Origin: an uncultured Gammaproteobacteria bacterium | GTDB taxonomy: Bacteria > Pseudomonadota > Gammaproteobacteria > Ga0077554 > Ga007554 | Length of the DNA: 42,367 bases | NCBI GenBank assembly: GCA_947085925.1 | Contig: CAMTYI010000030.1 | Span: 1-42,367, forward strand | Direction of reading: 5' to 3' | Part shown: piece after piece, positions 1,948 to 42,367 of the stretch | Numbering within the stretch: the stretch's first letter is position 1 | How the letters are laid out: every line of letters starts with the position of its first letter | Position numbers and translations under genes: made by a program | The notes under the pieces: generated by a model | Databases searched by the model: none | What the model saw: the letters and a program-made list of their open reading frames with translations, nothing else | What the model was told of the DNA's origin: nothing

Positions 1948-2247
1948 GTGATGGTGAGTAGCTCAAAAACATCCTTGTTCAACAGCCGTTATTTCAGGGG
2001 TGGTCTCCTGGTGGCGGTAGTGTTGGTGTCTGCCTTCGCTGTGGTCTATGCCAAATATGAGAGCCGCAAATTGTTTGTCGAATTGCAATCCCTGCAGAAG
2101 GTTCGTGACGATATGGCTGTCGAGTGGGGTCAGTTGCAGTTGGAGCAAAGCACATGGGCGACGCATGGCAGGATTGAAGGTACGGCGCGCACCACTCTGG
2201 GCATGATTCTGCCTCCCCCCGAAGCCGTGGTGATCGTCAAGCCATGA
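1948..2247 (+). CDS. ftsL: Cell division protein FtsL
   Basis: One TM helix plus coiled coil, EWGQLQLEQSTW motif, synteny; start uncertain (1948/1951/1954). Confidence 0.93.
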   Translation: MMVSSSKTSLFNSRYFRGGLLVAVVLVSAFAVVYAKYESRKLFVELQSLQKVRDDMAVEWGQLQLEQSTWATHGRIEGTARTTLGMILPPPEAVVIVKP

Positions 2248-5587: not shown

Positions 5588-6942
5588 TGACGTTGTCCGA
5601 AGCGGCCAAGGCGTTGGGTGCCGAACTGCATGGCGAGGATGTGGCGTTCGCGGCGGTGAACACCGATACCCGCACCTTGCAACAAGGGGATCTATTCGTT
5701 GCGCTGTGCGGCGAGAATTTTGATGGTCACGCCTTTGTGGCGGAGGCCGCCGCCCGTGGCGCGGTGGCAGCGCTGGTCAGCATGCCTATGGAGGCTGCTT
5801 TGCCTGCCCTGTGCGTGGCGGATACCCGCCTGGCGTTAGGCCAGTTGGCTGCGGCATGGCGCGCGCGCTTCGCCATGCCGCTGGTTGCAGTTACCGGCAG
5901 CAACGGCAAGACCACCACCAAGGAGATGCTCGCCGCGATACTGGCGCGGCGTGGGCCGGTGCTGGCGACCCAAGGCAATTTGAACAATGACATCGGTGTA
6001 CCGCTGACGCTGTTGCGCCTGCGCGATGAGCACCGTTGCGCGGTGATCGAAATGGGCGCCAATCATCCTGGTGAAATCGCCTATCTGAGCAATCTGGCAC
6101 GGCCCACCGTGGCGCTGATTACCAACGCGGCCATGGCCCATATCGGAGGCTTTGGCAGTCTGGATGAAATCGCGCATACCAAGGGTGGAATCTACGCAGG
6201 GCTGGATGAAAACGGCATCGGCATAGTGAATGCCGATGATGTCTATGCCGGGTTTTGGCGCACCCTGCTGGGCGCGCGCCGCTGCATGACTTTCGGTATG
6301 AGTAATCCATCGGATGTCTACGCGCTGGCAGAGAGTGTGCGCTGCATCGTTGACGATACCGCTATTACAACTTCTTTTCATATGCATACGCCTGCCGGTG
6401 ATGCCTCTGTGGTGTTGCCTCTGATGGGCCTGCACAACGTGATGAACGCCCTGGCGGCGAGCGCTGCGGCATTGGCAGCGGGCGCTACGCTTGCCGACAT
6501 CAAAGCGGGGTTGGAGGCGATGCGTGCGGTGAAAGGGCGCTTGCAGGTTAAGCGGGGTATCCACGGCACGCGCATCATAGATGACACCTACAATGCCAAC
6601 CCGCCGTCGGTGCAGGCGGCGATTGCTGTGCTGGCCACCGTTGAGGGCGAAAAGGCGCTGGTGCTGGGCGATATGGGCGAGCTGGGTGATGATGCGCCGC
6701 TATTCCATGAGCAAGTGGGCGCGCAAGCGAGGCAGGCCGGTATAGGCCGCCTCTATGCCACCGGGGAACTCAGCGTGGGCGCAGTGCGGGAGTTTGGTGC
6801 GAACGGGCGGCACTGTGCCAGCCACAATGAGTTGATAGCCGCGCTGCTGGCGGATCTGGCAGCAGGGACGACCGTGCTGGTGAAAGGATCACGGTTCATG
6901 CGCATGGAGCGTGTGGTTGATGCCTTGGTGGAAAAGGCGTGA
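5584..6942 (+). CDS. murF: UDP-MurNAc-tripeptide:D-Ala-D-Ala ligase
   Basis: TGSNGKTTTKEM, NLNNDIGVP, DDTYNANP, VKGSR. Confidence 0.97.
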   Translation: MMTLSEAAKALGAELHGEDVAFAAVNTDTRTLQQGDLFVALCGENFDGHAFVAEAAARGAVAALVSMPMEAALPALCVADTRLALGQLAAAWRARFAMPLVAVTGSNGKTTTKEMLAAILARRGPVLATQGNLNNDIGVPLTLLRLRDEHRCAVIEMGANHPGEIAYLSNLARPTVALITNAAMAHIGGFGSLDEIAHTKGGIYAGLDENGIGIVNADDVYAGFWRTLLGARRCMTFGMSNPSDVYALAESVRCIVDDTAITTSFHMHTPAGDASVVLPLMGLHNVMNALAASAAALAAGATLADIKAGLEAMRAVKGRLQVKRGIHGTRIIDDTYNANPPSVQAAIAVLATVEGEKALVLGDMGELGDDAPLFHEQVGAQARQAGIGRLYATGELSVGAVREFGANGRHCASHNELIAALLADLAAGTTVLVKGSRFMRMERVVDALVEKA

Positions 6943-6962
6943 TTTCTTTAAAGGCCAATTAA

Positions 6963-8045
6963 ATGCTGCTTTATTTTTTCAAATATCTGTCCCAGTTTCA
7001 CACAGGCTTCGGCGTGTTCCAGTACCTGACGCTGCGCGTCGTGCTGGGTGCGCTCACTGCGCTGGCGATTTCGCTGCTGGTGGGGCCTGCGATGATCCGC
7101 AAATTGACCATGTACAAGGTAGGGCAGAGCGTGCGTGACGATGGTCCGCAGACCCATCTGACCAAGGCCGGTACGCCAACCATGGGTGGTGCGCTGATAC
7201 TGGTGGCGATTGCGTTGAGCACCCTGCTGTGGGGCGACCTGGCTAATCGTTATGTCTGGTTGGTGTTGATCGTTACTCTGCTGTTCGGTGTGATCGGCTG
7301 GGTGGATGACTACAAGAAGTTGATACTGCGCAACTCCAAGGGTCTGTCGGCGCGTGCCAAGTATTTCTGGCAGTCGGTGGTGGGGTTGGGTGCCGCAGTG
7401 TTCATCTACCACTATGCTGCAACCCCGGCCGAAACCGATCTGCTGATACCGTTCCTCAAGCATGCCTCCATCGAGATGGGGGTAGTGTTCATCCTGCTTA
7501 CCTACTTCGTGATCGTCGGCACCAGCAACGCGGTTAATCTGACCGATGGCCTGGACGGTTTGGCGATCATGCCCACTGTTCTGGTAGCAGGGGCGCTGGC
7601 GGTATTTGCCTATGTCGCGGGGCACGCCAAATTCGCACCTTATCTCAGTATCCCCTATGTCACAGGTGTAGGCGAGGTGGCGGTGTTTTGCGGTGCAATA
7701 GTCGGAGCGGGTCTGGGATTTTTGTGGTTCAACACCTATCCGGCGCAGGTGTTCATGGGCGATGTCGGCGCCCTCGCCCTCGGCGCGGCGCTGGGCGTGG
7801 TGGCGGTGGTGGTGCGTCAGGAGCTGGTGTTGCTCGTCATGGGCGGGGTGTTCGTGATGGAGGCGGTGTCGGTGATGCTGCAAGTGGGGTCATACAAGCT
7901 CACAGGCCAACGCATCTTCCGCATGGCGCCGCTGCATCATCATTTTGAATTGAAGGGCTGGCCGGAACCGCGCGTCATCGTGCGTTTCTGGATTATTACC
8001 GTGATCCTGGTGCTGGTTGGTTTGAGTTCGCTGAAGATACGATGA
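6963..8045 (+). CDS. mraY: Phospho-MurNAc-pentapeptide transferase
   Basis: [33 protein letters not shown]; multiple TM helices. Confidence 0.98.
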
Positions 8046-9382
8046 GCATGGATGAGGTAAAACTCAATACTTTGATCGTGGGTCTGGGCAAGACTGGCCT
8101 GTCCTGTGCGCGCTTTCTCGCCGCGCGCGGGGTGCCGGTGGCAGTGACCGACAGCCGTGATTTCCCGCCGGGATTGGCCGCCCTGGAGCAGGAGTTTCCA
8201 GGCATGGCAGTCTTTGTTGGCGGTTTTGATCCTGCCGCTTTTGCCGCCGCACAGCAATTGGTGGTGAGCCCCGGCGTGTCACTGCGCGAACCGCTGATTG
8301 CTCAGGCCATGGCGCGCGGTGTGCCGGTGCTGGGTGACATCGAATTGTTTGCGCGCCATGCCGCCGCGCCCGTGGTGGCGATTACCGGTTCGAACGGCAA
8401 GAGCACCGTGACTACGTTGGTGGGTGAAATGGCTAAGCACGCCGGTCGCAATGTGCGCGTCGGCGGTAATCTTGGTGTGCCCGCGCTTGATCTGCTTGGC
8501 GCCACCGAGCCGGATCTATATGTGCTGGAGCTGTCCAGTTTTCAGCTTGAGACCACGTCTTCGCTTAATGCCGTAGCGGCGACCGTGCTCAATATCAGTG
8601 TTGATCATATGGATCGTTATCAGAGCATGGATGAATACGCTGCCGCCAAGCAGCGCATTTTTCACGGCAACGGTGTGATGGTGCTCAACATTGATGATCC
8701 TGTAGTGATGGGCATGGCGCAGACGGGCAGGCACACGGTGCGCTTTGATCTGGGTGAACCGGAGTTTAACGACTTCGGAATTATGCAGCGGGTGCATGGG
8801 CCTTGGTTGGCGCGGAATAGCGAACCGCTGATGCCGGTGGCCGAGGTGCGCATCAAGGGCATGCACAATGTCGCCAATGCCCTGGCCGCATTGGCTTTGG
8901 GTGATGCTGTGGGCCTGCCAATGGAGGCAATGCTGCAAACCCTGCGCGAATTCCCCGGCCTACCACACCGCAGTCAATGGGTAGCCGAGAAAGAGGGCGT
9001 GGCCTGGTACAACGACTCCAAGGGCACCAACGTCGGCGCCACGCTCGCCGCCCTGCAAGGTATGCCGGGCAAGGTGGTGCTGATTGCCGGTGGACTGGGC
9101 AAAGATGCGGATTTTACACCGTTGCGCCAGGCCGCCGCAGACAAGACACGCGCCGTGGTGTTGATCGGGCGCGACGCGCCGCTCATCGAAGCCGCGTTGG
9201 GCGGCGTGACGCCAGTGGTGCATGCGGCCAGCATGGAGGATGCCGTGGCTCAGGCGCGTCGTCTGGCGCAACCGGGCGATGTCGTGCTGTTGTCGCCGGC
9301 CTGCGCCAGTTTCGACATGTTTAGCGGATATGAAGAGCGCGGCAATGTATTCACCAACGCAGTGTTGAAGGTGACTGCATGA
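8042..9382 (+). CDS. murD: UDP-MurNAc-L-Ala:D-Glu ligase
   Basis: [38 protein letters not shown]. Confidence 0.97.
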
Positions 9383-10665
9383 TCGCGTGGCTCAAAAAAA
9401 TCTGGGCACCGCGCGCAAAGAACGTCAGCAGGGTTGCAGGGCGAGGCGGGGTGGTGATGCCGCGTCCGCGTGCCGGATCGCGTCCAAATGCACCGTCGCG
9501 GTCCGCCGTCGCCCTGCCGTTGGGCGACCCCTGGCTGCTCGGTGCGGCGCTCACGCTGCTGGTGCTGGGGGTGGTGATGGTGAGTTCCGCCTCGCTCAAT
9601 ATCGCCGAGCGCCAGTTTGGCCATCCCTTTTATTACATCATCCGCCAGGTGGCGTTTGTGATGGTGGGCGTGATGGCAGCGGTGCTGGTGGCGCGCACCC
9701 GCCTGGTTTATTGGGAAAAGGCCGGCAGCACGCTGCTACTGGTTGGCATGGTGATGCTGGCGCTGGTGCTGCTGCCGGGGATAGGCAAGGTGATCAACGG
9801 CAGTCAGCGTTGGGTCTCTTTGGGTTTATTTAATTTGCAGGCGTCCGAGCCGGTGAAACTGTTTGTGGTGATCTATATCGCCGGTTATCTGGTGCGCCAC
9901 GGGGCGGAGGTGCGTAACTCGATCCTGGGCTTTATCAAGCCAATGCTGCTGTTGACGTTGATCGCGCTGTTGTTGTTGCTGGAGCCGGATTTCGGCGCCA
10001 CCGCAGTCATGTTTGCCACTGCGCTGGGCATGTTGTTCCTGGGCGGCGCGCGTCTTTTGCCGTTCGTGGCTTTGATGGCGGCGCTGGCAGTGGCGGTGGT
10101 GGGGCTGATCTTTTCATCGCCGTATCGCATGGCGCGCCTGACGGGTTTCATGGATCCGTGGGCCGATCCGTTCGACAGCGGTTTCCAGTTGACCCAGGCG
10201 CTGATCGCCTTCGGGCGCGGCGAGTGGTTTGGCGTGGGGCTGGGTGCGAGTGTGCAGAAATTGTTCTATCTGCCTGAGGCGCACACCGATTTTCTATTTG
10301 CAGTGCTGGCTGAAGAGTTGGGCTTGGTGGGTTCGCTGGTGGTGATCGGGCTGTTCACGTTGCTGGTGGTGCGTGCCTACGTCATCGGGCGGACAGCGGA
10401 AAAGGCCGGGCACAGCTTCGCGGCCTATCTTGCCTATGGACTGGGGTTGTGGATCGCCTTGCAGGCGATTATCAACATCGGCGTCAACATGGGCGTGCTG
10501 CCGACCAAGGGGCTGACGCTGCCACTGATGAGTTACGGCGGCAGCAGTATTGTGGTGATGTGCGTGGCGGTGGCGTTGCTGTTGCGCGTCGCGCATGAAA
10601 CCCGCGTGCACGACCACGCACGAACCGTCCCTGTGGTGCGTGTTGCGGGAGCCGTGGCGACATGA
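9379..10665 (+). CDS. ftsW: SEDS peptidoglycan glycosyltransferase FtsW
   Basis: LEPDFG, LPEAHTDF, PTKGLTLPLMSYGGSS; start may be at ~9451-9457. Confidence 0.96.
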   Translation: MIAWLKKIWAPRAKNVSRVAGRGGVVMPRPRAGSRPNAPSRSAVALPLGDPWLLGAALTLLVLGVVMVSSASLNIAERQFGHPFYYIIRQVAFVMVGVMAAVLVARTRLVYWEKAGSTLLLVGMVMLALVLLPGIGKVINGSQRWVSLGLFNLQASEPVKLFVVIYIAGYLVRHGAEVRNSILGFIKPMLLLTLIALLLLLEPDFGATAVMFATALGMLFLGGARLLPFVALMAALAVAVVGLIFSSPYRMARLTGFMDPWADPFDSGFQLTQALIAFGRGEWFGVGLGASVQKLFYLPEAHTDFLFAVLAEELGLVGSLVVIGLFTLLVVRAYVIGRTAEKAGHSFAAYLAYGLGLWIALQAIINIGVNMGVLPTKGLTLPLMSYGGSSIVVMCVAVALLLRVAHETRVHDHARTVPVVRVAGAVAT

Positions 10666-11756
10666 GCGTGCAGCGTGTTTTGATTATGGCGGGCGGCACC
10701 GGCGGACACGTTTTCCCTGCGCTGGCAGTGGCGGATGAGCTGCGCGCGCAAGGGGTTGAGGTGGTGTGGATGGGCACCCGTGCCGGCCTGGAAGCCGAGG
10801 TGGTGCCGCGCGCCGGTATCGACATCGAATGGGTGTCGATCAGCGGCTTGCGCGGCAAAGGGCCGATGAGCCTGCTGCTGGCGCCCTTCAAGCTGATGGT
10901 TGCGATGGCGCAATCGCTGGCGATAGTGATGCGTCGTCGCCCGATGGCGGTGTTGGGGATGGGCGGCTTTGTCACCGGGCCAGGCGGGTTTATCACCTGG
11001 CTGCTGCGCAAGCCGCTGGTGATCCACGAACAGAATGCCATCGCGGGCATGACCAACCGCTGGCTGGCGAGGCTGGCGAATAAGGTTCTGGAAGCCTTCC
11101 CAGGCACGTTTCCGGCGCGATGCAAGGCCGTCGCCACCGGCAATCCTATCCGCGCCACGATCACCGCGCTGCCGCCGCCGGAGCAGCGCCTTGCCGGACG
11201 CAGTGGCGTGCTGCGACTGCTGGTGGTGGGCGGTAGTCTGGGCGCGCAGGTATTCAATCAAACGGTGCCCGATGCCATCAAGGCGATGGGGCCGGGGGTA
11301 CGTCCCGATGTGTGGCATCAGGCGGGGAAAAAGCACATCGAGGCCGCCCGTGAGTCTTACCGGCAAGCAGGCGTCGCGGCGCGTGTCGATCCGTTCATCG
11401 GTGATATGGCTGAGGCCTATGCCTGGGCCGATCTGGTGCTGTGCCGTGCAGGCGCCTTGACGGTGTCAGAGTTGGCTTCAGCCGGTGTGGCGTCGATTCT
11501 GGTGCCTTACCCGTTCGCCGTGGATGATCATCAGACGCACAACGCGGCGTACCTGGCGGATGCTGGCGCGGCCATATTGGCGCTACAGCCGCAGCTCACC
11601 GCGCAGTCGCTGGGTAAGCTGCTCGCCGGTTTCTGCGAGGCGCCGCAGCAGGGCAGGCAAAAACTTTTAGAGATGGCGCGCATCGCACGGCGTCTGGCGA
11701 AACCGGAATCCACCCGCGTAGTGGCGGCACTGTGTCTGGAGGCGGCGCGAGCATGA
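10662..11756 (+). CDS. murG: Lipid I GlcNAc transferase
   Basis: [30 protein letters not shown]. Confidence 0.98.
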
Positions 11757-13156
11757 GACGCATCAAACGTATTCATTTTGTAGGCATCGGCGGCGCAGGC
11801 ATGAGTGGCATCGCGGAGGTGCTGCATAACCTGGGCTATCAGGTGTCCGGTTCGGATGTACATGAGAATGCCGCAACGCGCCGCCTGGCAGAGTTGGGTG
11901 TTTCCCTCTCGCTGGGCCACAGTGCGGAGTGCATCAACGGGTGCGACGTGGTGGTGACCTCCACCGCCGTGCGCGCCGATAATCCCGAGGTGATCGAGGC
12001 GCAGCGTTTGCGTATCCCGGTGGTGCCGCGTGCCGAAATGCTTGCCGAACTGATGCGTTTCCGCCAAGGCATTGCAGTGGCGGGCACTCACGGCAAAACC
12101 ACCACCACCAGCCTGGCCGCCAGTCTGCTCGCCGAGGGCGGACTGGATCCCACCTTTGTGATCGGTGGACGGCTCAACAGCGCTGGCGCCAACGCCCGTC
12201 TCGGCGCGGGCCAATATCTGGTGGCCGAGGCCGACGAGAGCGACGCATCATTTTTGTATTTACAGCCGATGATTGCCGTGGTGACCAACATCGACGCCGA
12301 CCATATGGAGACCTACGGTGGCGATTTCGGGCGGCTGCGCCAGACCTTTGTCGAGTTTCTGCACCACCTGCCCTTTTACGGGCTGGCGGTGTTGTGCCTG
12401 GATGATCCGGTGGTGCGCCAGATCCTGCCGCAGGTGACACGTCCGGTGATTACCTATGGCATCGGTGAGGATAGCGGCGCGGATATTTTCGCCAGCGATA
12501 TTCGCCAGGAGCAGGATCGCACCTACTTCACCGTGTCCCGCCCCGGTCAACGCGATTGGTTGACGGTCACCGCGAATCTGGCGGGCCGCCACAATGTGCT
12601 CAACGCCTTGGCGGCGATAGCCATCGCTCATGAAGTGGATGTTGCTGATGATGCGATTCTGCGCGGTCTGGCAGGGTTCCAGGGCGTCGGGCGGCGTCTC
12701 CAGAATTACGGCGAGATCGACACCCCTGCGGGCAGCGTGCTGATGATCGACGATTATGGTCATCATCCGCGCGAGGTCGCCGCCGTGGTGCAGGCGATTC
12801 GCGCCGGCTGGCCGGAACGTCGCCTGGTTGTAGCATTTCAGCCACATCGCTACACGCGCACCCGCGACCTGTTTGAAGACTTTTCCAAGGTGCTCTCCGA
12901 GGTGGACGTGCTGGCGTTGGTGGAGGTGTATCCCGCCGGTGAAGCGCCGATTGCCGGGGCCGACGGGCGCACGCTATGTCGTGCCATCCGGGCACGCGGC
13001 CATGCCGACCCCGTGTTCGTGGAACGTGTTGCCGAACTGCCGGAAACGCTGGCCGGGCTGCTGCGCAAGGGCGACATCCTGCTCACGCTGGGCGCAGGCG
13101 ACATCGGTGCAGCGGCGGCGAAATTGCCGAAGCAACTTAAAGACTTGATGACGTGA
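11753..13156 (+). CDS. murC: UDP-MurNAc:L-Ala ligase
   Basis: [33 protein letters not shown]; ATG 11753 overlaps the murG stop. Confidence 0.98.
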
Positions 13157-13161
13157 TGGCA

Positions 13162-13201
13162 TACCCATGAAGGGCACAATGTACCCATGAAGGGCACAAT
13201 G
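13162..13201 (+). repeat. Two exact tandem copies of the 20-mer TACCCATGAAGGGCACAATG
   Basis: 13162-13181 equals 13182-13201; a 17/20 inverted copy lies at 41623-41642. Confidence 0.95.
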
Positions 13202-14104
13202 CACCACCAACCACCGGCCTTGCGCGGCACCCTGCTCCGTGATGAACCCATGGCGCGTCACACCACCTGGCGCGTGGGTGGTCCGGCCCGGCAGTTTTAT
13301 CAGCCCGCCGACATCGACGATCTGGCGTTGTTCCTGAGCCAGTTGCCGGAGAACGAACCGCTATTTTGGGTTGGTCTGGGCAGTAATCTGCTGGTGCGTG
13401 ACGGAGGCCTTAATGGCACCGTCATCATGATGGTCGGTGCGCTGGGCGGGTTGCAGCATGACGGCGTCACTGTGCGCGCCGAGGCGGGCGTGCCTTGCGC
13501 CAAAGTGGCCCGTTACTGTGCGCGCCAGGGGCTGGTGGGCATCGAGTTTTTCGCCGGGATTCCCGGCACGGTAGGCGGCGCCTTGGCGATGAACGCAGGC
13601 GCCTTCGGTGGCGAGACCTGGCCGCTGGTCGAATCGGTGGAGATCATTGATCACAAGGGTTTGCGCCTTATACGCAGACCGGACGAATACCACGTCGGCT
13701 ATCGCAGCGTCACCGGACCTGCGAGGGAGTGGTTCATCGCTGCGAATTTCAGGCTGCAAAGCGGCGACACCGAGGCCAGCCAGGCGCGTATCAAGGAATT
13801 GCTGGAGCAGCGCAACCGCACCCAGCCGACCAATCAGCCCAGTTGCGGATCTGTGTTCCGCAACCCGCCCGGCGATCATGCGGCGCGGTTGATCGAAGCC
13901 AGCGGCCTGAAAGGCATGCGCATCGGTGGCGCCTGCGTGTCCACCAAGCACGCCAATTTCATTGTGAATACAGGCAATGCCACGGCAGCGGACATCGAGA
14001 CATTGATCGCGCATGTAGCAGATGTGGTGGAGCGGGAACACGGCATTAGATTAATCCGGGAGGCGCACATTATCGGTGAGTGCCTCCCGTCAAAAGAGGT
14101 TTGA
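13187..14104 (+). CDS. murB: UDP-N-acetylenolpyruvoylglucosamine reductase
   Basis: HTTWRVGGPA, GLGSNLLV, GGALAMNAGA, GSVFRNP, KHANFIVN; start 13187 or 13199, both inside the 20-bp repeat. Confidence 0.97.
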   Translation: MKGTMHHQPPALRGTLLRDEPMARHTTWRVGGPARQFYQPADIDDLALFLSQLPENEPLFWVGLGSNLLVRDGGLNGTVIMMVGALGGLQHDGVTVRAEAGVPCAKVARYCARQGLVGIEFFAGIPGTVGGALAMNAGAFGGETWPLVESVEIIDHKGLRLIRRPDEYHVGYRSVTGPAREWFIAANFRLQSGDTEASQARIKELLEQRNRTQPTNQPSCGSVFRNPPGDHAARLIEASGLKGMRIGGACVSTKHANFIVNTGNATAADIETLIAHVADVVEREHGIRLIREAHIIGECLPSKEV

Positions 14105-14107
14105 GTC

Positions 14108-15025
14108 ATGACGCGCAAGACCAATAATCCAGCGGATTTCGGCAAAGTCGCGGTACTGCTGGGCGGCCGGTCGGCCGAGCGCGAGGTTTCGCTGATGAGC
14201 GGCAACGCCGTGCTTGCCGGATTGCGCAACCGCGGTGTCGACGCCCATCCCTTCGATCCCGCCGAGCGTGATCTGGCTGAGCTGCGCGGCTATGACCGCG
14301 CCTTCATCATTTTGCACGGACGCTACGGTGAGGATGGCACCCTCCAGGGCGCGCTGGAGCTGATGGATATTCCCTATACCGGCAGCGGCGTGCTGGCGAG
14401 TGCGCTGGCGATGGACAAGTGGCGTACCAAGCTGGTGTGGCAGGCCGCAGGCGTGCCTACGCCGCGCTATATCCTGCTGGAAGAAGGCTTCGACCCCGAG
14501 GCCGTCGTGCATCAGCTTGGACTGCCGATTTTCGTCAAACCGGCTACCGAGGGATCCAGCATCGGTATCGCCAAGGTGACGCGTGCCGATCAGCTTGTAG
14601 AGGCCTGGCAGGCGGCGTCGCAATACGACAGCCTGGTGCTCGCGGAACAGTTTATCGAAGGGCAAGAGGTGCAGTTCCCCATCCTGGGCGATTGTGTGTT
14701 GCCTTCGATCCGTATCGAAACACCGTGTGAGTTCTATGATTACCAGGCCAAGTATATCCGCGACGACACGCGCTACTACTGCCCGGGTCTTCCCGCCGAT
14801 GAGGAGAGCCGTCTGCACGATATCGTGTTGCGCGCCTTCCGCGTGCTGGGGTGCCGAGGTTGGGCGCGAGTGGATCTCATCATCGACCGCCAGGGCAATC
14901 CGTATTTTCTGGAGATGAATACCTCGCCCGGCATGACCAGCCACAGCCTGGTGCCGATGGCGGCCCGTGTGGCCGGAATCGAATTTGACGAGTTGGTGTG
15001 GCGGGTATTGGAAGCAACATTGTAA
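14108..15025 (+). CDS. ddl: D-alanine--D-alanine ligase
   Basis: [36 protein letters not shown]. Confidence 0.97.
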
Positions 15026-15055
15026 TCGAGTCAAGGAAAGAGATTTTTAACGAAT

Positions 15056-15823
15056 ATGTTTGGCAAACGCACGCCTAAAACCAATCGACGCATTGAGCCG
15101 GCTCGTACCGACGGCGACTGGCGAGCGCGCATCAATGCCCGTCTGATCGTCATGGCGGCGCTGGGCGTGACCTTGTGCGGATTGGCGGCATGGGGCTGGG
15201 TGAAGCTGGATGATCCGCGCACCTTGCCGATCGCGGCGGTGAAGGTTGAAGGCCAATTTCATCACCTGAGCACGCAACAGTTGCAGCAGGCGGCCGCCGC
15301 GTATACGGCGGGAGGGTTTTTCAATGTCGATGTCGATGCGGTCAGAGATGCCGTGCTGCGCTTGCCATGGGTGAATGCCGTCAGCGTGCGTCGTGTCTGG
15401 CCGGATACGCTGCAAATTGCCGTCGTGGAACATTTGCCCGTGGCGCGTTGGGGCAGCGGCGGGCTGGTCAACAGCCAGGGCGCACTGTTCTTTCCGCCTG
15501 CGGCGAGTTATCCCGCAGGGTTGCCCGAGCTGCAGGGGCCGCAAGGCAGCGAGACCGTGGTCGCCGCGCGTTACAGGGATATGGACAAGACCCTAAAGCC
15601 GCTTGCGCTGCATGTCAGCCGCGTATCGCTGGATGATCGCCGTTCCTGGCGTATCGAGTTGGATAACGGCGCCTTGTTGGTGTTGGGCCACGTTGCGGAC
15701 GATGCGCGCCTGACGCGGTTTGCACGCATCTATCCGATAGCCCTCGCGGCACGCGCGGCGGATATCGGCGAGGTGGATCTGCGTTACACGAACGGATTTG
15801 CAGTGCGCTGGAAGAAGGTATGA
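15056..15823 (+). CDS. ftsQ: Cell division protein FtsQ
   Basis: TM plus POTRA region (LPWV...VRRVWPD), C-terminal DLRYTNGFAVRW. Confidence 0.95.
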   Translation: MFGKRTPKTNRRIEPARTDGDWRARINARLIVMAALGVTLCGLAAWGWVKLDDPRTLPIAAVKVEGQFHHLSTQQLQQAAAAYTAGGFFNVDVDAVRDAVLRLPWVNAVSVRRVWPDTLQIAVVEHLPVARWGSGGLVNSQGALFFPPAASYPAGLPELQGPQGSETVVAARYRDMDKTLKPLALHVSRVSLDDRRSWRIELDNGALLVLGHVADDARLTRFARIYPIALAARAADIGEVDLRYTNGFAVRWKKV

Positions 15824-15840
15824 AGCGGAGTGGCGAAAAT

Positions 15841-15863
15841 GTAGGGCGGGTTGGCAACCCGCC
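15841..15863 (+). repeat. Single GTAG-type REP
   Basis: GTAG followed by perfect palindrome GGCGGGTTG-G-CAACCCGCC, intergenic ftsQ-ftsA. Confidence 0.7.
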
Positions 15864-15912
15864 AGGCGTTGCGCAGCAACACAACGGGTTTAATCAAGGG
15901 TAAAAGATTTAA

Positions 15913-17148
15913 ATGTCCAAGAAGTCTGACAAAGATTTGATCGTAGGTCTCGATATCGGCACCTCCAAGGTGGTGGCGATAGTGTGCGAGATTACGCCAG
16001 AGGGGAAGGTCGATATCATCGGTATCGGCTCGCACCCGTCACGCGGCCTGAAGAAGGGCGTGGTGGTAAATATCGAGTCCACCGTGCAATCCATCCAGCG
16101 CGCCGTGGAAGAGGCCGAGCTGATGGCGGGTTGCCAGATTCACTCCGTCTATGCGGGCATCGCAGGCAGTCACATCCGCAGCCTCAATTCGCATGGCATC
16201 GTGGCAATCCGCGATCAGGAAGTGACACAGGCCGATGTCGATCGCGTTATCGACGCCGCGCGCGCGGTAGCGATTCCTGCCGACCAGAAGATCCTGCATA
16301 TCCTGCCGCAGGAATTTATTATCGACCACCAGGAAGGCATCCGCGAACCCATCGGCATGTCGGGCGTGCGCCTTGAGGCCAAGGTACACATCGTTACTGG
16401 CGCGGTGAGCGCGGCGCAGAATATCGAGAAATGCGTGCGACGCTGCGGCCTGGAAGTGGACGACGTCATCCTCGAACAGCTCGCATCCAGCTACGCGGTA
16501 TTGACCGAAGATGAAAAAGAGTTGGGCGTGTGTCTGGTAGATATTGGCGGCGGCACCACGGACATCGCCATATTTACCGACGGCGCGATTCGCCATACGG
16601 CGGTGATACCCATCGCCGGCGATCAGGTGACCAATGATATTGCCGTGGCGCTGCGCACGCCCACCCAGTTTGCCGAGGACATCAAGATCAAATACGGTTG
16701 CGCGTTACGGCAACTGGCCAGCGTCAATGAAACCATCGAAGTGCCCGGCGTCGGCGAGCGCCCATCGCGCCGTCTGGCGCGTCAGACCCTCGCCGAGGTG
16801 ATAGAGCCGCGCTATGAAGAGTTATTGAGTCTGGTTCAGGCCGAGCTGCGCCGCAGTGGATTTGAAGGCTTGATTGCTGCCGGCATCGTGCTGACCGGCG
16901 GCACGTCCAAGATGGAAGGCGTGGTCGAACTTGCAGAGGAAATTTTCCACATGCCGGTACGCCTGGGTGTTCCGCAGAATGTCGTGGGGCTGGTGGATGT
17001 AGTGCGCAATCCGATTCATGCCACGGGTGTCGGGCTGTTGCTGTTCGGTTGCCAGCAGCGTCATGGGCGTGGCGGCGAGGCGAAGGTGAAAGAGGGCGTC
17101 AAGAACATGTGGGATAGGATGAGGGGCTGGTTTCAGGGGAGTTTTTAG
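15913..17148 (+). CDS. ftsA: Cell division protein FtsA
   Basis: GLDIGTSKV, VDIGGGTTD, VLTGG actin-like motifs. Confidence 0.98.
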   Translation: MSKKSDKDLIVGLDIGTSKVVAIVCEITPEGKVDIIGIGSHPSRGLKKGVVVNIESTVQSIQRAVEEAELMAGCQIHSVYAGIAGSHIRSLNSHGIVAIRDQEVTQADVDRVIDAARAVAIPADQKILHILPQEFIIDHQEGIREPIGMSGVRLEAKVHIVTGAVSAAQNIEKCVRRCGLEVDDVILEQLASSYAVLTEDEKELGVCLVDIGGGTTDIAIFTDGAIRHTAVIPIAGDQVTNDIAVALRTPTQFAEDIKIKYGCALRQLASVNETIEVPGVGERPSRRLARQTLAEVIEPRYEELLSLVQAELRRSGFEGLIAAGIVLTGGTSKMEGVVELAEEIFHMPVRLGVPQNVVGLVDVVRNPIHATGVGLLLFGCQQRHGRGGEAKVKEGVKNMWDRMRGWFQGSF

Positions 17149-17180
17149 CAGCCTGTCGGACTTAGGTCGACAGGCTGCTA
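17146..17180. repeat. TA-flanked 13-bp inverted repeat, probable collapsed MITE
   Basis: TAGCAGCCTGTCG-9 nt-CGACAGGCTGCTA; no U tract; includes the ftsA stop. Confidence 0.65.
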
Positions 17181-17262
17181 GGTTCAAGAGTTTGGCCACG
17201 GAGCTTGTGGTGTCTCCGTGGTAATGGCGATTCAACGGCGGGTTATTTTAGGAGATAAAGTC

Positions 17263-18483
17263 ATGTTTGAACTAATGGATGCATACAGTCAAAACGCAGT
17301 TATCAAGGTCATTGGTGTGGGTGGTGGTGGCGGCAACGCTGTTGAACATATGGTGCTGGCGAGCATTGATGGCGTCGATTTCATCTGCGCCAACACCGAC
17401 GCTCAGGCACTGAAAAATTCCTCTGCACGCACCGTGCTGCAACTGGGCGGCAGCATGACCAAAGGGCTGGGCGCAGGCGCCAATCCCGATGTCGGCAGGC
17501 AGGCGGCGCTGGAGGACCGTGACCGCATCATGGAGCTGATCGAAGGGACCGACATGCTGTTTATCACCGCCGGCATGGGTGGTGGCACCGGCACCGGCGC
17601 TGCACCCATCGTGGCGCAGATCGCAAAGGAAATGGGTATCCTGACCGTGGCAGTGGTGACCAAGCCGTTCCCCTTCGAAGGCGCCAAGCGTATGAAGGTA
17701 GCGCAAGCCGGTATTCGGGAGCTGGAGCAGCATGTCGATTCGCTGATCACCATCCCCAACGAAAAACTGCTCTCCGTACTGGGCAAGGGCGTATCCCTGC
17801 TCGACGCGTTCAAGTCGGCGAACAACGTCCTGCTGGGCGCAGTGCAAGGTATCGCGGAACTGATTACCCGTCCCGGCCTGATCAACGTCGACTTTGCCGA
17901 CGTGCGCACCGTGATGTCCGAGATGGGCATGGGCATGATGGGCTCAGGCTCCGCCAGCGGTGATGATCGCGCAAGACGCGCCGCCGAGGCTGCCGTCGCC
18001 AGCCCGCTGCTGGAAGACATCAATTTGTCCGGCGCGCGTGGCATTCTGGTGAACGTCACCGCCGGTCTGGACATGTCCATTGGTGAGTTTGAAGAGGTCG
18101 GCAATATCATCAAAGAGTTCGCATCGGAGAACGCCACCGTGGTAGTGGGTACGGTCATTGATCCTGACATGGTGGCTGGCGAGCTGCGCGTCACCGTGGT
18201 CGCAACCGGGCTGGGTGGACGTGAGGAGATTACCGAGAAGCCGGTCAAGCTGGTTTACCAGAGTGTTGCCGGATTGAGCGCCGGGCACAGCAGTGCGCAG
18301 AGCGGTTACGCCAGCGACCAAAACGCAGGGTTTGGCATGGGCGACATTGATTACGGCAAGCTGGACCGTCCAACAGTGATGCGCAACCAGGCCGTGTCCG
18401 GGCGTCATGCGCAGGCGATTAATCTGGATTCCAATCTGGACTACCTGGATATCCCCGCGTTTCTGCGCCGCCAGGCGGATTGA
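17263..18483 (+). CDS. ftsZ: Cell division protein FtsZ
   Basis: [27 protein letters not shown]-terminal [12 protein letters not shown]; ATG 17263 follows AGGAG. Confidence 0.99.
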
Positions 18484-18645
18484 ACGGCTGTGCTGGCCGG
18501 AGTTCCGGCCAGTTGACAGGCTTGTTTTTACTAGGCAGGGCTTCATGCGCTGTGATAACATGACGCCAAAGAAGGTTTACGGCGCCCCTCTATAAATGGC
18601 GGGGCAAGGTGGGCTATCGTGTATGGATATCGTGGTATTGTTAAC

Positions 18646-19560
18646 ATGATCAAGCAGCGCACTTTAAAAAACGTCATCAGGGCCACAGGCGTCGGTTTGC
18701 ATACCGGTGAAAAGGTCTACCTGACACTCCGGCCCGCCGCCATCGATGCGGGCATTGTGTTTCGTCGCGTGGATCTTGATCCGCCGGTAGAAATCCACGC
18801 CTCGCCGGACAACGTCGGCGATACCCGTTTGTCCACAACGCTGGGCAGCGGTGCCGCGTCCGTTTCCACCGTGGAGCATCTGTTGTCGGCGCTGGCGGGT
18901 CTGGGTATCGACAATGCCTATATCGACATCAGCGCGCCTGAGGTGCCGATCATGGATGGCAGCGCCGGTCCCTTCGTGTTCCTCATCCAGTCCGCTGGCG
19001 TGGTAGAGCAGAATGCGCCCAAGCGCTTCATTCGCATCAAGGAGTCCGTGCTTGTCCAGGATGGCGACAAGTGGGCCAGATTCGATCCTTTTGACGGCTT
19101 CAAGGTTTCGTTCAGCATTGATTTCGATCACCCTGCCTTCAAGGGGCGTCCTCAGGAAGTGGTTGTGGATTTTTCCACGACCTCGTTTGTCAAGGAAGTC
19201 AGCCGTGCCCGCACCTTCGGTTTTATGCGCGACATAGAGATGCTGCGCAAAAATAAACTGGCATTGGGTGGCAGCCCCGATAACGCGATTGTCGTGGACG
19301 ACTACCGCATTCTCAATGAAGATGGCCTGCGTTACGAGGACGAGTTTGTCAAGCACAAGGTGCTGGACGCGGTAGGCGACCTCTACCTGCTGGGGCACAG
19401 CCTGATCGGCGCGTTCAGCGGCTACAAGTCGGGGCACCAATTGAATAATCGTTTGTTGCGTGCGCTGATGGCCAGGGAAAACGCCTGGGAGCTGGTGACT
19501 TTTGAAGACGGCAACAAGTCAGCCCCCATATCGTTCCTGCAGCCAGTGACAGCGGGTTGA
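18646..19560 (+). CDS. lpxC: UDP-3-O-acyl-GlcNAc deacetylase
   Basis: [33 protein letters not shown]. Confidence 0.98.
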
Positions 19561-19615
19561 ATAATTTAAATCAATAAAATGAAATCGTAGGGTGCGTCCT
19601 ACATATGTTGGCGAA

Positions 19616-20071
19616 TTAACTGTGCTTTCCATGCCGTGCCAGACGGTGCAGCGCGGCTTGGAGTTTGGGGTGGGTGATGGCATCGGCCATGCTGTCAAGC
19701 AGGCTGGCGGCGTCCCCGGACATATGCGCGCGCCTTGGTTTTTCTGCCGGGGCGGCGACCATGCTGGCGGGCCTGACCTTGATGTCAATGCCGCGCAGAC
19801 TCTGCAAGGCGGGGGTTTTTTGTAGTTGTGCAAGCATGACGGGCACGCTATAACGCAACTTCAGCGCCCAGGCGGAAGAGTCGGCATGCAATACCAGCGT
19901 ATCACCCCGGATGTTTGCGACTTGACAGTGCTGGTTTAGCGGCGGCGGAAGCTGGTTACGTAAAACATGGCTCAACTGTTCCAGCCGCTTGGCGCGTGCA
20001 AGCAGCGGCTGTAGTATGTCATGGCTTCCCGCCAGCAGGCCAGCTACGCGTTTAGGTGTCTTGATTGGCAT
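19616..20071 (-). CDS. dciA: DUF721/DciA family helicase-loading protein
   Basis: HCQVANIRGDTLVLHADSSAWALKLRY and C-terminal L..ALHRLA; antisense position between lpxC and secA. Confidence 0.85.
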   Translation of the reverse strand: MPIKTPKRVAGLLAGSHDILQPLLARAKRLEQLSHVLRNQLPPPLNQHCQVANIRGDTLVLHADSSAWALKLRYSVPVMLAQLQKTPALQSLRGIDIKVRPASMVAAPAEKPRRAHMSGDAASLLDSMADAITHPKLQAALHRLARHGKHS

Positions 20072-20145
20072 GTTTTTTTAATAGATGGTGATGTAAACGA
20101 AAACATAACATAGACTGGGAGCCTTTATCCTGGGAGTCTACCTAA

Positions 20146-20291
20146 GAAACTGTTCACAATCTCGATCAAGGGATGCAGTGCAGTGCAAGGCAAAATCGAA
20201 CGAAAAAGCGGAGCATACATGAAGTATGTGAGCATTTTGAGTTCGATTTTAACGCAGCAATGCGCCCTTCAGCGAGATTGTGAACAGTTTC
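20146..20291. mobile_element. 146-bp MITE (RPE1-like palindromic element)
   Basis: Perfect 19-bp TIRs GAAACTGTTCACAATCTCG / CGAGATTGTGAACAGTTTC; TAA duplicated on both sides; central CATAC-ATGAA-GTATG hairpin. Confidence 0.9.
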
Positions 20292-30666: not shown

Positions 30667-30725
30667 GGCTGCTGTGAACCTGTTTACCTCAGTTTGTTCA
30701 TTAACCCCAAAAGAGTTCACTTAAA

Positions 30726-30814
30726 GTAGGTTGGGTCAAGCGAAGCGGACCCAACATTGCACTGAATTAATGATTTTGTTGGGTCCGGAGCTTGCACTCC
30801 TTGACCCAACCTAC
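30726..30814. repeat. REP doublet of a second family (GTAGGTTGGGT)
   Basis: GTAGGTTGGGTCAAG..GGACCCAACA / TGTTGGGTCC..CTTGACCCAACCTAC between convergent genes. Confidence 0.85.
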
Positions 30815-41316: not shown

Positions 41317-42354
41317 CAGGGCAATCGCATTAAAAGTCTCTTGACAGGGAAGCGGGGATAATGGTTTTTGTTGTCCTTTTGGACTGTCGCCATGGAACCA
41401 CGCCCAACTGCCTCCATCATCAAGCATTTCTCATCCATTCCTGATCCCCGAATAGATCGTCGGAAGTTGCATAAGCTACAGGACATTTTTTTCATTACGC
41501 TGTGCGCCGTCATTTGCGGAGCGGATGATTGGGTGTCTATCGAGTTGTTTGGAGAGTCCAAGGAGGCTTGTTTACCGAGGTTCTGCGCGGCAGTTTAGAT
41601 AAGGCTTCTGGAAAAGCGGCTACATTGTCCCCTTCACGGGGATTCACATGGTCAGTGCGTGGGCAACACAGAACCAGTTAGTGCTTGGGCAACAAAAGGT
41701 AGACGACAAATCCAATGAAATTACCGCCATCCCCAGGCTGTTGATGCAACTCAATATAGCGGGTGCTGTGGTGACCATGGATGCGATGGGTTGTCAGACC
41801 AAAGTGGCAGAACAAATCGTTAATCAAGGCGCTAATTACATGCTCAGTTTAAAAGGCAACCAGCGCAACTTGCAGCAGGAACTGTGCGAGCGTCCGCAGA
41901 TATCGATTGGCTGAAAGAACGGCATCCCCAATGGGTCGACTTGAAGAGTATTTTTGCGGTCACCGCCCAGCGCGAAGCGCGAGATAAAACAACGGAAGAA
42001 ACGCGTTATTTCACCAGCAGTATGGATGCCTCCGACCCAAAACGTTTGGGGCAAATCGTCCGTGCGCACTGGGGTATCGAAAACAATCTGCACTGGGTCT
42101 TGGACTATGCCTTTGATGAGGACGCTCAACGTGCCAGGGCAGGTCACAGTGCCGCTAACATGGCTGTCATCCGGCACATCGCTCTCAATCTGGTTAAATC
42201 CGAAAAAACGGCGAAGGTCGGCGTGAAAAATAAACGACTCAAAGCAGGCTGGGATGAGGATTATTTATTAAAAGTAGTGACGGGAAAGCCGGTGAAAATA
42301 AAGAGAAAAACATAATGGCATGTTTTATAGATTGTTTTTAACGCGATCGCCCTG
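41317..42354 (+). mobile_element. Decayed ISAs1-family element, 1038 bp
   Basis: TIRs CAGGGCAATCGCATTAAAA / TTTTAACGCGATCGCCCTG (17/19 match). Confidence 0.88.
41392..42315 (+). pseudogene. ISAs1 transposase pseudogene
   Basis: IPDPR..HKL, MVSAW..KSNEITAIP, DAMGCQ, KGNQ and RAHWGIENNLHWVLD lie in separate ORF pieces; PSHDT/IDGK and HGRIE segments are missing. Confidence 0.92.
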
Positions 42355-42367
42355 AGCCTGATGGTAC

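Follow-up and report, generated by a model that had tools for sequence, protein, structure and literature searches.

The stretch of DNA analysed here (the window) is 42,367 nt long and belongs to the genome designated G000. Near its right end, a decayed insertion sequence of the ISAs1 family occupies 41317..42354 on the plus strand, bounded by the terminal inverted repeats CAGGGCAATCGCATTAAAA and TTTTAACGCGATCGCCCTG at 41317 and 42354, and its alignment with the nearest DNA relative, contig C34 of G006 (another genus of the same bacterial family), begins and stops at these repeats. Both features by which ISAs1-family membership was tested, a DDE_Tnp_1-type transposase and terminal inverted repeats, are present, as two C-terminal pieces of the transposase at 41648-41911 and 41884-42312 match Pfam PF01609 (DDE_Tnp_1) with E values of 1.3e-7 and 4.5e-8. 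The name ISAs1 itself presumably applies, in our view, to judge from conserved motifs at the N-terminus and from AIHMVSAW. The element is present as a single copy in the assembly, with its final 110 nt also found on contig C42, and its transposase is disrupted at three places, by internal deletions around 41570 and 41890 and by a 20-nt insertion.

This insertion, the focal unit, lies at 41623..41642 on the minus strand, where it reads TCCCCGTGAAGGGGACAATG and folds as the hairpin TCCCC / GTGAA / GGGGA followed by CAATG. It shifts the transposase frame by 20 nt: positions 41583-41621 translate as LRGSLDKASGKAA, and base 41622 followed by a skip of 41623-41642 lets the frame resume as I-HMVSAW and enter the open reading frame 41648-41911. 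The relative in G006 reads GCGGCCA^TTCACATGG where the window reads GCGGCTA, the 20 nt and then TTCACATGG. The site is thus an exact 20-nt insertion lacking a target duplication, and in the orientation of the unit it reads GTGAA^T with a 1-nt ambiguity (T). An earlier note made from the sequence had claimed that the frame resumes once the 20 nt are removed and that no clear target duplication is seen, and the translation and the G006 alignment bear out both points; the same note held that intact relatives containing these 20 nt would speak against an insertion, and the G006 relative lacks exactly these 20 nt.

The site was also compared with Logan contigs of public runs. Contigs assembled from another sample (X2) of the study that yielded the window span 41523-42367 with 0 gaps, and a contig from a different study (X7) spans 41515-41683 with 1 other letter and 0 gaps, both including the insertion. 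No empty ISAs1 allele was found among the Logan contigs, a result that is uninformative on polymorphism. The contigs of a further run (X3) break off at 41600 and restart at 41689.

The window holds further copies of the unit at murB, where two identical tandem units lie on the plus strand at 13162..13181 and 13182..13201, in the interval that separates the murC stop codon (13154-13156) from murB. The only in-frame start codons left to murB are the ATG codons at 13187 and 13199, both within the second unit, and the murB reading frame runs from 13187 to 14104. One unit is found at this position in G003 and none in G001, G002, G004 and G006. The empty alleles read GTGATGGCCATGCACCAG, and in the filled ones CATG is replaced by G/A, the unit(s) and CAC, so this insertion was not a clean one. 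The likeness of the reverse complement of the focal unit to the murB unit, set at 17/20 with two of the three differences at the paired stem positions 2 and 14, was confirmed, but two tandem copies are present there instead of one and their junction is untidy. Two unit-free members of repeat families that are filled elsewhere also lie in the window. A REP doublet of the GTAGGTTGGGTC type at 30715..30805 represents the paralogous empty site for the unit at G000:C88:15984, and a copy of the 'GATCAAGG' palindromic repeat lies at 20145..20232, other copies of which are filled at GCA^AGGC.

A family of 20-nt hairpin units

In the consensus of 20 nt, positions 1-5 pair with positions 11-15 around the loop RTRAA, and the tail CAATG follows. 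The genome of the window contains about 85-95 copies. The pattern proposed in the earlier note gave 3 matches in the window against 0.11 expected, with 0 of 100 shuffles reaching 3, and 70 matches genome-wide against 4 for the reversed pattern. Iterative excision recovered 84 units (64+16+4) and none from the reversed genome, and a looser pre-filter raised the yield to 95 (71+17+6+1). These copy numbers are approximate because a few units accepted by the one-substitution model match conserved genes by chance, at C189:3257 and at G004:C9:666200 and 1659658. The absence of further copies genome-wide had been named as grounds for abandoning the idea of a mobile unit, and many more copies are present.

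The stem positions of the unit covary. A pattern that takes no account of pairing, NNNCCRTRAAGGNNNCAATG, has 76 exact matches (55 in G000 and 21 on G004:C9), with 0 and 0 in the reversed controls. Pair 3-13 is of the Watson-Crick type in 70 of these 76 (46 C-G and 24 A-T) against 39.8 expected, pair 2-14 in 56 against 30.6, and pair 1-15 in 62 against 46.1.

The family occurs in all five genomes of the genus (G000-G004). With at most 1 mismatch, these contain 51, 15, 9, 62 and 35 copies, compared with 0-1 in seven other genomes of the order or family and 0-2 in 49 genomes of other families; exact matches number 38, 7, 3, 44 and 20 versus 0 in the seven others. The family is thus restricted to one genus and stands at chance level in the 49 genomes from other families. 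A scan of 596 Gb of genome contigs with a degenerate 20-mer returned at least 115 matches, nearly all of them single chance matches, from a pattern too loose for judging the distribution beyond the order; among the matches listed, only three loci, in one public MAG record, resemble the genus of the units. Two subfamily patterns run against viral contigs gave 1 and 0 matches, the single match being unrelated DNA.

Turnover within the genus is suggested by the site upstream of ruvB, which is filled in G000, G001 (a decayed copy), G002 and G004 and precisely empty in G003, the sister of G000 in the murC-murB tree (95% identity, support 0.993). The empty site in G003 is likely to reflect the clean loss of an old copy, a reading that stays short of proof because the trees from three loci are discordant; allele replacement by recombination could have produced it instead.

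Filled and empty sites, targets and nesting

More than 20 pairs of filled and empty sites, both paralogous and orthologous, differ by exactly 20 nt. Fourteen paralogous pairs lie within G000, and the orthologous pairs filled in G000 and empty in G004 are C56:1261, C69:2053, C69:2241, C146:17130, C133:1404 and C161:1367. In addition, an IS200 tnpA gene is interrupted by an exact unit insertion in G001 and has an intact copy in G002, and a nested pair of units is absent as one 40-nt block from its empty counterpart. In the reverse comparison, 5 of 27 unit clusters of G004 could be bridged in G000, two of these being chance matches in conserved genes. Neither target duplication nor deletion of target bases was observed at the exact 20-nt insertions.

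The units are hosted by the loops of other units, REP loops, MITE-like palindromes and four IS families. Transposase genes of the ISAs1, IS30-like, IS110-like and IS200 types are frameshifted by them (the sites C69:2053 and 2241 lie in IS30-like DNA), and a helicase gene carries a unit with its frame rescued by 20+4 nt. Of 66 unit sites, 29 fall within reading frames of at least 200 aa, compared with 82% of 1000 random positions, so units are depleted in long reading frames rather than excluded from them. Units survive where a 20-nt frameshift is harmless, namely between genes, in REPs and MITE-like palindromes, and in IS genes that are already dead.

The 66 clusters comprise 47 single units, 13 doubles, 4 triples, 1 cluster of four and 1 of six, and nesting reaches a depth of four. 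Inner units are positioned at GTRA^AGG or GTGAA^GGG, and of 26 nested units 22 share the orientation of their host and 4 are opposite. The favoured site ...GTRA^AGG... is the loop/stem junction of the unit itself, and units therefore pile up inside one another; they also enter similar sequences and other hairpin loops, and a head-to-tail arrangement is possible. Among 118 de-duplicated sites, 65 have A at position -1, and many other 5' flanks occur. Of the 68 A-type units, 25 have the target A^AGG and 19 are directly preceded by GTAA, GTGA or TGAA. The target rule is loose, since GTRA^AGG is missing from many targets and 4 of the 26 nested units point the opposite way to their host. The rule A^YA, drawn earlier from two empty sites, does not generalise across the unit sites.

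The mover and competing explanations

The 20 nt in the ISAs1 element are very probably a copy of a real mini-element mobilised in trans. The earlier proposal of a mobile unit far below the size of a MITE is strengthened by the copy number, the covarying stems, the precise alleles, the nesting and the restriction to one genus; its weak points are the untidy murB junction and the recombination that could underlie the G003 loss. In the proposed mechanism, a host-encoded enzyme would act in trans on the folded hairpin of the unit, would read its structure together with the conserved CC/GG stem base, the loop and the CAATG tail, and would cut at both exact ends of the unit and rejoin the DNA without a footprint. 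As to the chemistry, our best guess is an HUH/Y1-type transposase that acts on single-stranded DNA, as in IS200/IS605 or RAYT. The statement as a whole, a non-autonomous, genus-specific hairpin element moved in trans with HUH/Y1 chemistry as a guess, is held to be somewhat more probable than its negation. The self-spreading 20-nt unit of the earlier interpretation is supported, and its excision footprint and A^YA rule are not.

An HUH-type mover, taken separately, is possible but doubtful. The absence of target duplication, the hairpin with its conserved flank, the short preferred 5' target and the Y1 genes present in every genome of the genus are consistent with it. However, 0 of 22 Y1/RAYT (PF01797) loci, comprising 2 in G000 and 20 of the 35 matches in G001-G004, are flanked by units; around the two RAYTs of G000 lie other REPs, of the GTAGGTTGGGTC and GTAGGATGGGTG types. 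PF01797 is found in 12 of 12 genomes of the order, including the 7 that are unit-free. No replication-strand bias is seen on G004:C9, a contig of 1.9 Mb whose cumulative GC skew puts the terminus near 590 kb: 18 units lie on the leading-strand sequence and 15 on the lagging, in a small sample whose nested units are not independent. The target rule is loose, and the unit has one hairpin versus the two subterminal hairpins of IS200/IS605 ends. The HUH nuclease as the mover accordingly remains a guess. Among other candidate genes, PF07282 (TnpB) is present in 0 of 12 genomes of the order, PF04754 in 4 and PF01548 (IS110) in 10, the latter two not tracking the units. No unit was found within 1.5 kb of any of the 12 GIY-YIG (PF01541) loci of G000-G004 with 2 substitutions allowed, and no enzyme gene was found near the unit-dense loci of G004 and G003, which hold housekeeping genes only.

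Movement by nuclease and repair is an unlikely alternative. Here, a site- or structure-specific double-strand nuclease would cut GTRA^AGG-like sites or the tips of hairpins or cruciforms, and short-patch gene conversion would copy units into the break in a homing-like manner. Most insertions lie in repeated sequences (unit loops, REP loops, the 'GATCAAGG' palindromes and a 75-nt palindrome with GGGGCCGTTA^AGG), and donor and recipient therefore share flanking similarity; the same loop position takes either orientation, and the lack of strand bias also fits. Exact units nevertheless occur in unique targets that resemble no filled site, including the ISAs1 element, C69:2053 and 2241, C146:17130, C56:1261, the IS200 tnpA gene and the helicase gene, where the homology arms would be 0-5 nt.

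Template switching that needs no dedicated enzyme, in which a polymerase stalled at small hairpins in replication or repair jumps via microhomology (GTGAA, AGG, ATG) to a unit-bearing template and returns, is judged quite improbable. Microhomology is found at many junctions, GTRA and AGG being common to unit and target, and the ISAs1 target CATGTGAA^TGG is similar to a composite at C163:7872 that is filled, with ...CCGTGAA before the unit and GGG after it; the identical tandem copies and the untidy junction at murB would also be accommodated. Against this, the ends of the units are constant (T/C1 ... CAATG20) in unrelated targets, where microhomology switches should vary, and the family is limited to one genus though hairpins and polymerases are universal. 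Covariation in the stems, together with a loop and tail that do not vary, points instead to a specific recognition factor.

There is little reason to regard the units as selected functional motifs, such as sites for protein binding, small terminators, stabilisers of RNA, or signals for DNA uptake or recombination, with their spread being secondary. Many copies lie between housekeeping genes, the copy upstream of ruvB is kept in 4 of 5 species, and a unit now supplies the murB start codon; yet copies also occur in dead IS genes, nested up to four deep and in either orientation. The hairpins are weak as single-stranded DNA, at -4.4 kcal/mol for the focal unit and -2.1 kcal/mol, a direct reading finds the T-run after the hairpin absent, and no Rfam family matches at E up to 1 around the ISAs1 or murB site. 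Moreover, selection leaves the arrival of exact 20-nt blocks at new sites unexplained.

It is highly improbable that the units are excision footprints or solo ends of a larger IS bounded by TNNCCRTRA ... AGGNNACAATG, as the earlier note had considered. The stem does resemble a pair of 5-bp terminal inverted repeats, but the 56 matched half-site pairs in G000 are spread flat over 20-6000 nt with no preferred spacing, the unit-dense loci hold only housekeeping genes, and the loop, besides being conserved, serves as the target. A longer element with the two hairpin halves at its ends was not found. Finally, chance resemblance or an assembly artefact at the ISAs1 site, for which nothing speaks except the shortness of the motif, is refuted by the shuffled and reversed controls at or near zero and by the identical insertion in the contigs of a second sample and a second study.

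Relation to known small repeats and significance

The closest known kind of element, as far as the accessible parts of the published descriptions go, is that of the small dispersed repeats (SDRs, especially SDR4-6) of Nostoc punctiforme and other Nostocaceae, which are about 20-27 nt long. In those parts, SDRs are very short dispersed repeats, thought to be mobile, that insert precisely and occur in tandem, and none is reported outside the Nostocaceae. The 20-nt units display the same behaviour so described, with precise presence or absence between relatives and tandem or nested copies. Their host is not a cyanobacterium but an uncultured lineage of another phylum, filed under Gammaproteobacteria in a related public record. 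They measure 20 nt, and their sequence family is probably unrelated to the SDRs; they favour the loop of the unit itself (GTRA^AGG) as a target rather than HIP1. Elhai and colleagues reportedly noted in 2008 the hairpin form, compensatory changes and nesting of SDRs. The earlier view that the unit is not a described element is right as regards the sequence family. The Nostocaceae SDRs, however, are a published class of comparable elements, to the extent that these partial descriptions allow the comparison. In a literature search, neither the unit motif, which is poorly suited to searching as text, nor a self-nesting element of 20 nt from Proteobacteria turned up in any paper.

Elements of the IS200/IS605 type insert without target duplication next to a short specific flank, leave no footprint on excision, and are recognised at their ends via DNA hairpins; a replication-strand bias is expected of them. 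The units share the precise ends and the absence of target duplication. In contrast, IS200/IS605 elements and the gene-less PATEs have two subterminal hairpins and are hundreds of nt long, the unit consisting of one hairpin and 20 nt, and the lagging-strand orientation bias is not seen among the units of G004:C9 (18:15). The IS200 copies of the genus carry a different end hairpin, CCGGCTTTAGCCGG, and in G001 these copies are themselves interrupted by a unit. Fungal mitochondria contain mobile GC clusters and double-hairpin elements, which are tiny and gene-less and insert into hairpins and each other, but these reside in organelle genomes, are longer two-hairpin units, and in some cases have target duplications. 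Compared with MITEs, the units lack target duplications, measure 20 nt versus about 50-500 bp, and no parent element was found for them.

Like REPs and REPINs, the units are imperfect palindromes in the range of 20-40 nt with a conserved tag beside a covarying stem, are high in copy number, lineage-specific and non-autonomous, and lack target duplication. The unit-bearing genomes also carry classical GTAG-tagged REPs and RAYT genes. REP tags are of the GTAG or CGTC class in the accessible part of their description (PMC3733652), whereas the unit is tagged by CAATG on the 3' side of its stem, which reads CATTG on the opposite strand. A cognate RAYT is flanked by its own REPs, but none of the 22 loci is flanked by units, and REPINs are extragenic and mostly inverted doublets where the units are nested or tandem and lie also inside genes and IS. 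The resident REPs are targets of the units, not relatives. In Neisseria, the dRS3/NTS repeats related to Ssn are 20-30-nt hairpins present in hundreds of copies in one lineage and tied to a protein acting on single-stranded DNA, the gene of this GIY-YIG nuclease being usually flanked by its own repeats, according to the accessible part of the report (Chenal et al. 2025, PMC11893778). Compared with what that part describes, the motif of the units differs, and 0 of the 12 GIY-YIG loci has a unit nearby.

The units rank among the smallest mobile elements seen in bacteria. To our knowledge, there is hardly any documentation of mobile DNA shorter than about 50 nt and no account of how it moves, and we know of no explanation since 2008 for the mechanism of SDRs or the enzyme that moves them. 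The family provides a second, cleaner system in a phylum other than that of the SDRs, with a simple consensus, a readable target rule (the unit's loop), dozens of exact filled and empty pairs and likely clean excision. Considering the narrow host range, five species with units versus seven relatives without, a comparative hunt for the enzyme is feasible, and an enzyme that cuts and joins at a 20-nt hairpin with single-base precision would be of practical interest. The units also matter for annotation, as they frameshift genes, allow in-frame rescue in the helicase, replace the start codon of murB and break assemblies at repeats.

A bolder conjecture, to which we give a minority chance, is that the 20-nt hairpin is a complete transposon substrate with its landing site in its own loop, moved exactly and without footprint or duplication by an enzyme of the genus, and that subfamilies differing in a stem base prefer different flanks, with A-type units favouring A^AGG and G-type units N^CC. 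If so, the flank preferences of the subfamilies would mean that the element's own DNA helps to read the target, and the units would be the smallest self-targeting mobile DNA known in Proteobacteria. They would then serve as a clean model system for the 'very small mobile repeats' of several phyla, which still lack an explanation, and the enzyme behind their movement may be a DNA transferase of a new, hairpin-specific class.

Exact insertion of a 20-nt block

A decayed ISAs1-family insertion sequence occupies the window's end (41317–42354); its terminal inverted repeats are read directly, and in the alignment its homology with a copy on contig C34 of G006, a genome from another genus of the same family, begins and ends at these repeats. 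Two C-terminal pieces of the transposase match Pfam DDE_Tnp_1 (E 1.3e-7 and 4.5e-8). The translation of 41583–41621 is LRGSLDKASGKAA, and the frame picks up as (I)HMVSAW... only when 41623–41642 are left out. The earlier note's reading, that 20 extra nucleotides interrupt this frame with no clear target duplication, was confirmed by the G006 relative, which lacks exactly these 20 nt: it reads GCGGCCA^TTCACATGG (^, insertion point), and the window reads GCGGCTA, the 20 nt and TTCACATGG. The alignment of the empty and filled sites therefore establishes an exact insertion without target duplication. In the T...CAATG orientation the target is CATGTGAA^T, with one T ambiguous. Neither ISAs1 copy is intact: compared with G006, the window copy lacks sequence at two internal places, near 41560–41600 (about 190 nt) and 41880–41900 (shorter), and the G006 copy carries a different deletion. 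The window copy is unique in the assembly of the window's own genome (G000); the final 110 nt of the window were found again on G000 contig C42 (97%). Contigs of two further data sets, one a second sample from the same study and the other a drinking-water metagenome from another study, carry the insertion without a gap, which excludes an assembly artefact; no empty ISAs1 allele was seen among the assembled contigs of either.

Within G000, rejoining the flanks of many units gives a sequence that aligns across the junction with uninterrupted copies of the local repeat, the filled copy being longer by exactly 20 nt. Units lie at GCAGCGCA^AGGCAAAAG in 'GATCAAGG' palindromes (four filled copies versus several empty ones, including window 20145–20232), in a REP loop of the GTAGGGTGCG type, at GGTGCGTCC^CACGCACC, in a 75-nt palindrome at GGGGCCGTTA^AGGAATA, and in a REP doublet whose empty copy is window 30715–30805; in a further paralogous comparison, a nested pair of units is absent as a single 40-nt block. 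Between genomes, filled G000 sites and empty sites in G004, one of four other genomes of the genus (G001–G004), differ by exactly 20 nt at C56:1261, C69:2053, C69:2241, C146:17130 and C133:1404, and at C161:1367 by 20 nt with one extra 1-nt indel. Target duplication was absent at every filled/empty site compared. The unit is a discrete 20-nt block whose two ends are constant, inserted exactly and without duplication.

The murC–murB site, where the earlier note had found a similar unit, is untidier. Positions 1–20000 carry a standard division and cell-wall (dcw) cluster, with murC at 11732–13156 and murB at 13187–14104, judged by ORF sizes and order only. No unit is present between these genes in G001, G002, G004 and G006, one is present in G003, and two identical tandem units (13162–13181 and 13182–13201) part the murC stop from the murB start in G000, within the interval 13154–13201. 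The tandem units abolish the ancestral overlapping start (TGATGG...ATG in G001, G002 and G004), and the only in-frame start left to murB is an ATG that the second unit supplies (13187 or 13199). At this junction the CATG of empty alleles is replaced by G/A, the unit or units, and CAC.

Family size, structure and targets

The pattern proposed in the earlier note has 3 matches in the window versus 0.11 expected, and a search for further copies in the G000 assembly (2.64 Mb, 205 contigs, 85% complete) gave 70 matches versus 4 for the reversed pattern. A stricter, structural model, NNNCC-RTRAA-GGNNN-CAATG, was applied with at most one substitution and a minimum of two outer pairs out of three, and was iterated with each round's units removed. 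It recovered 64+16+4 = 84 units in G000 and none in the reversed genome, and a pre-filter tolerating a tail mismatch raised the number to 71+17+6+1 = 95; the copy number is given as about 85–95 because a few matches are chance occurrences inside conserved genes (e.g. C189:3257).

In predicted single-stranded folds, the ISAs1 unit forms a 5-bp stem closing a 5-nt loop (-4.4 kcal/mol), and the murB unit, having an A.C mismatch, reaches just -2.1 kcal/mol. Covariation was assessed with the pairing-agnostic exact pattern NNNCCRTRAAGGNNNCAATG, which matches 55 times in G000 and 21 times in G004 contig C9 (reversed controls 0 and 0). Watson–Crick pairs occur at positions 3–13 in 70 of 76 copies (46 C-G, 24 A-T; 39.8 expected if independent), at 2–14 in 56 (43 C-G, 11 G-C, 2 A-T, besides 18 A.C; 30.6 expected) and at 1–15 in 62 (52 T-A, 10 C-G, besides 8 T.G; 46.1 expected), counts in which copies share kinship and events are not independent. 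Positions 4–5 and 11–12 (CC/GG), the loop and the tail are near-invariant, and the stem types TCCCC/GGGGA, TCACC/GGTGA, TGCCC/GGGCA, TACCC/GGGCA and CACCC/GGGCG each have many copies. The stem is hence under structural constraint, and the loop, stem base and tail are under sequence constraint. An Rfam search around the ISAs1 and murB sites matched nothing.

The 95 G000 units fall into 66 clusters (47 single, 13 double, 4 triple, one of four and one of six), with nesting up to four deep (e.g. C111:21181–21300). Inner units occupy the loop of the host unit, after GTRA (GTRA^AGG) or after GTGAA (GTGAA^GGG), and are co-oriented with it in 22 of 26 cases, some composites being copies of one another. 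Both the ISAs1 target and that in C56 (CATGTGAT^C) are similar to the 5' half of the loop in the unit itself. In G000 and G004:C9 together, 118 sites remain after de-duplication, and A stands at position -1 in 65 of them; A^AGG is the target of 25 of the 68 units with A at position 15, and of the 47 with G there, 24 have C at +1 and 25 have it at +2. A difference in flank preference between these subfamilies is only suggestive, as some of the sites are not independent. Units favour their own loop sequence and other hairpin loops as targets.

Distribution, turnover and genes hit

Copies at up to one mismatch number 51, 15, 9, 62 and 35 in the genus's five genomes (controls 0), 0–1 in seven other genomes of the family and 0–2 in each of 49 genomes that represent other families in the class. 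Exact copies number 38, 7, 3, 44 and 20 versus 0 in the seven. The unit family is restricted to one genus; the order comprises only these 12 genomes, and beyond them the negatives apply to the searched genomes alone. Among viral contigs, one subfamily pattern gave a single match, in unrelated DNA, and a second gave none.

The oldest datable copy lies about 15 nt 5' of a ruvB-like start codon (G004:C9:365549–365568; orthologues at loci L272–L274 and G000:C112:17059–17078). It is kept in four of five species, diverged at 1–4 positions, the site being filled in G000, G002 and G004, decayed in G001 and exactly empty in G003. In the murC–murB tree G003 is sister of G000 (95% identity, support 0.993), but trees from two further loci disagree. 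The likeliest history is that an old insertion was later lost cleanly in G003; allele replacement by recombination would also yield the empty allele and is less likely.

Long ORFs are depleted at unit sites, 29 of 66 being spanned by an ORF of at least 200 aa versus 82% of 1000 random positions, and the unit-dense loci of G004 and G003 sit between ordinary housekeeping genes. The genes interrupted are mostly those of mobile elements. One IS30-like transposase copy (rve and HTH_38) carries two units (G000:C69:2053–2072 and 2241–2260) and G004:C9 has three copies without units. An element of the IS110 family also carries two (G000:C146:17130–17149 and C56:1261–1280), the first abutting the DEDD domain (C146:17151–17528) and the second mapping 1 kb away in G004. 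In an IS200-type tnpA of G001 (L148:161–180, contig C76) the unit follows ...VSSPP, the intact G002 gene reads CCACCGG^AAATGG there, and the insertion recurs in at least two G001 copies. A UvrD-like helicase gene in G003 (L277:1524–1543, C29:21523–21542) contains a unit and, six bases downstream, 4 extra nt, together a 24-nt, in-frame insertion of eight residues; the gene lies within a 4.2-kb tandem duplication with the unit in both copies (twin at L277:5755), and the empty site is in G000:C176.

Candidate movers and related repeats

The proposal of the earlier note that a 20-nt unit spreads is upheld by the family, its exact filled/empty pairs and its confinement to one genus. A genus-specific trans-acting protein probably recognises the folded hairpin and tail and performs a footprint-free cut-and-join of the unit, for which HUH/Y1 single-strand transposition would be the best-fitting chemistry. 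That HUH/Y1 transposition moves the units is a tentative and rather doubtful proposal, because strand bias and gene linkage are absent and the hairpin is single. On G004:C9 (1.9 Mb; cumulative GC skew peak near 590 kb), 18 units read as leading-strand and 15 as lagging-strand sequence, so a replication-strand bias is absent. Y1/HUH genes have two matches in G000 and 5–11 in each other genome of the genus, and are also present in all seven unit-free genomes; no unit lies beside a Y1/RAYT gene at any of 22 loci. The presence of IS110 does not track units. Four tandem Y1_Tnp (RAYT-like) genes were observed within 5 kb at G004:C4:213850–218918, and two adjacent ones at G003:C20:44165–45218.

Each of the two RAYTs in G000 has its own GTAG-type REPs on its flanks, and the genome has at least three classical types of these: GTAGGTTGGGTC flanks the RAYT on C59 (9970–11060), GTAGGATGGGTG adjoins that on C147 (450–560), and GTAGGGTGCG, for which no RAYT was found, occurs 106 times. 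Units in GTAGGGTGCG loops keep one orientation relative to GTAG (about 10 cases seen). A palindromic repeat some 130 nt long, starting ...CGATCAAGG..., lies directly 5' of both RAYT genes (C59:10170–10300), has many dispersed copies (including window 20145–20232 and many in G004:C9) and is a favoured place of unit insertion, at GCA^AGGC.

The main rivals, nuclease-plus-repair copying and template switching, would also spread units, but both lose weight because units keep their exact ends even in unique targets and because the host range is narrow. All five genomes of the genus have a small GIY-YIG gene, and none of 12 GIY-YIG loci has a unit within 1.5 kb; the Ssn/NTS model (PMC11893778) is therefore unsupported. 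None of the 12 genomes encodes TnpB, and across them Transposase_31 presence does not track units either. Matched unit halves spaced 20–6000 nt apart in G000 bound no longer element, and the notion of an excision footprint was not sustained.

The units differ in at least one defining feature tested from each of three known classes: REP/REPIN elements, derivatives of IS200/IS605 and repeats related to Ssn. Their closest published counterpart is the small dispersed repeats (SDR) of Nostocaceae (Elhai et al. 2008). Later papers report that SDR5 inserts precisely between nt 3 and 4 of HIP1, and that among HIP1-rich cyanobacteria none outside Nostocaceae was found to have an SDR-like repeat. A literature search found neither the unit motif nor any 20-nt self-nesting element described in Proteobacteria. 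The unit family is a real feature of a known kind whose mechanism is unexplained. Since it is a simple system with many exact filled/empty pairs within one genus, it makes the old problem of how repeats this small are moved approachable.
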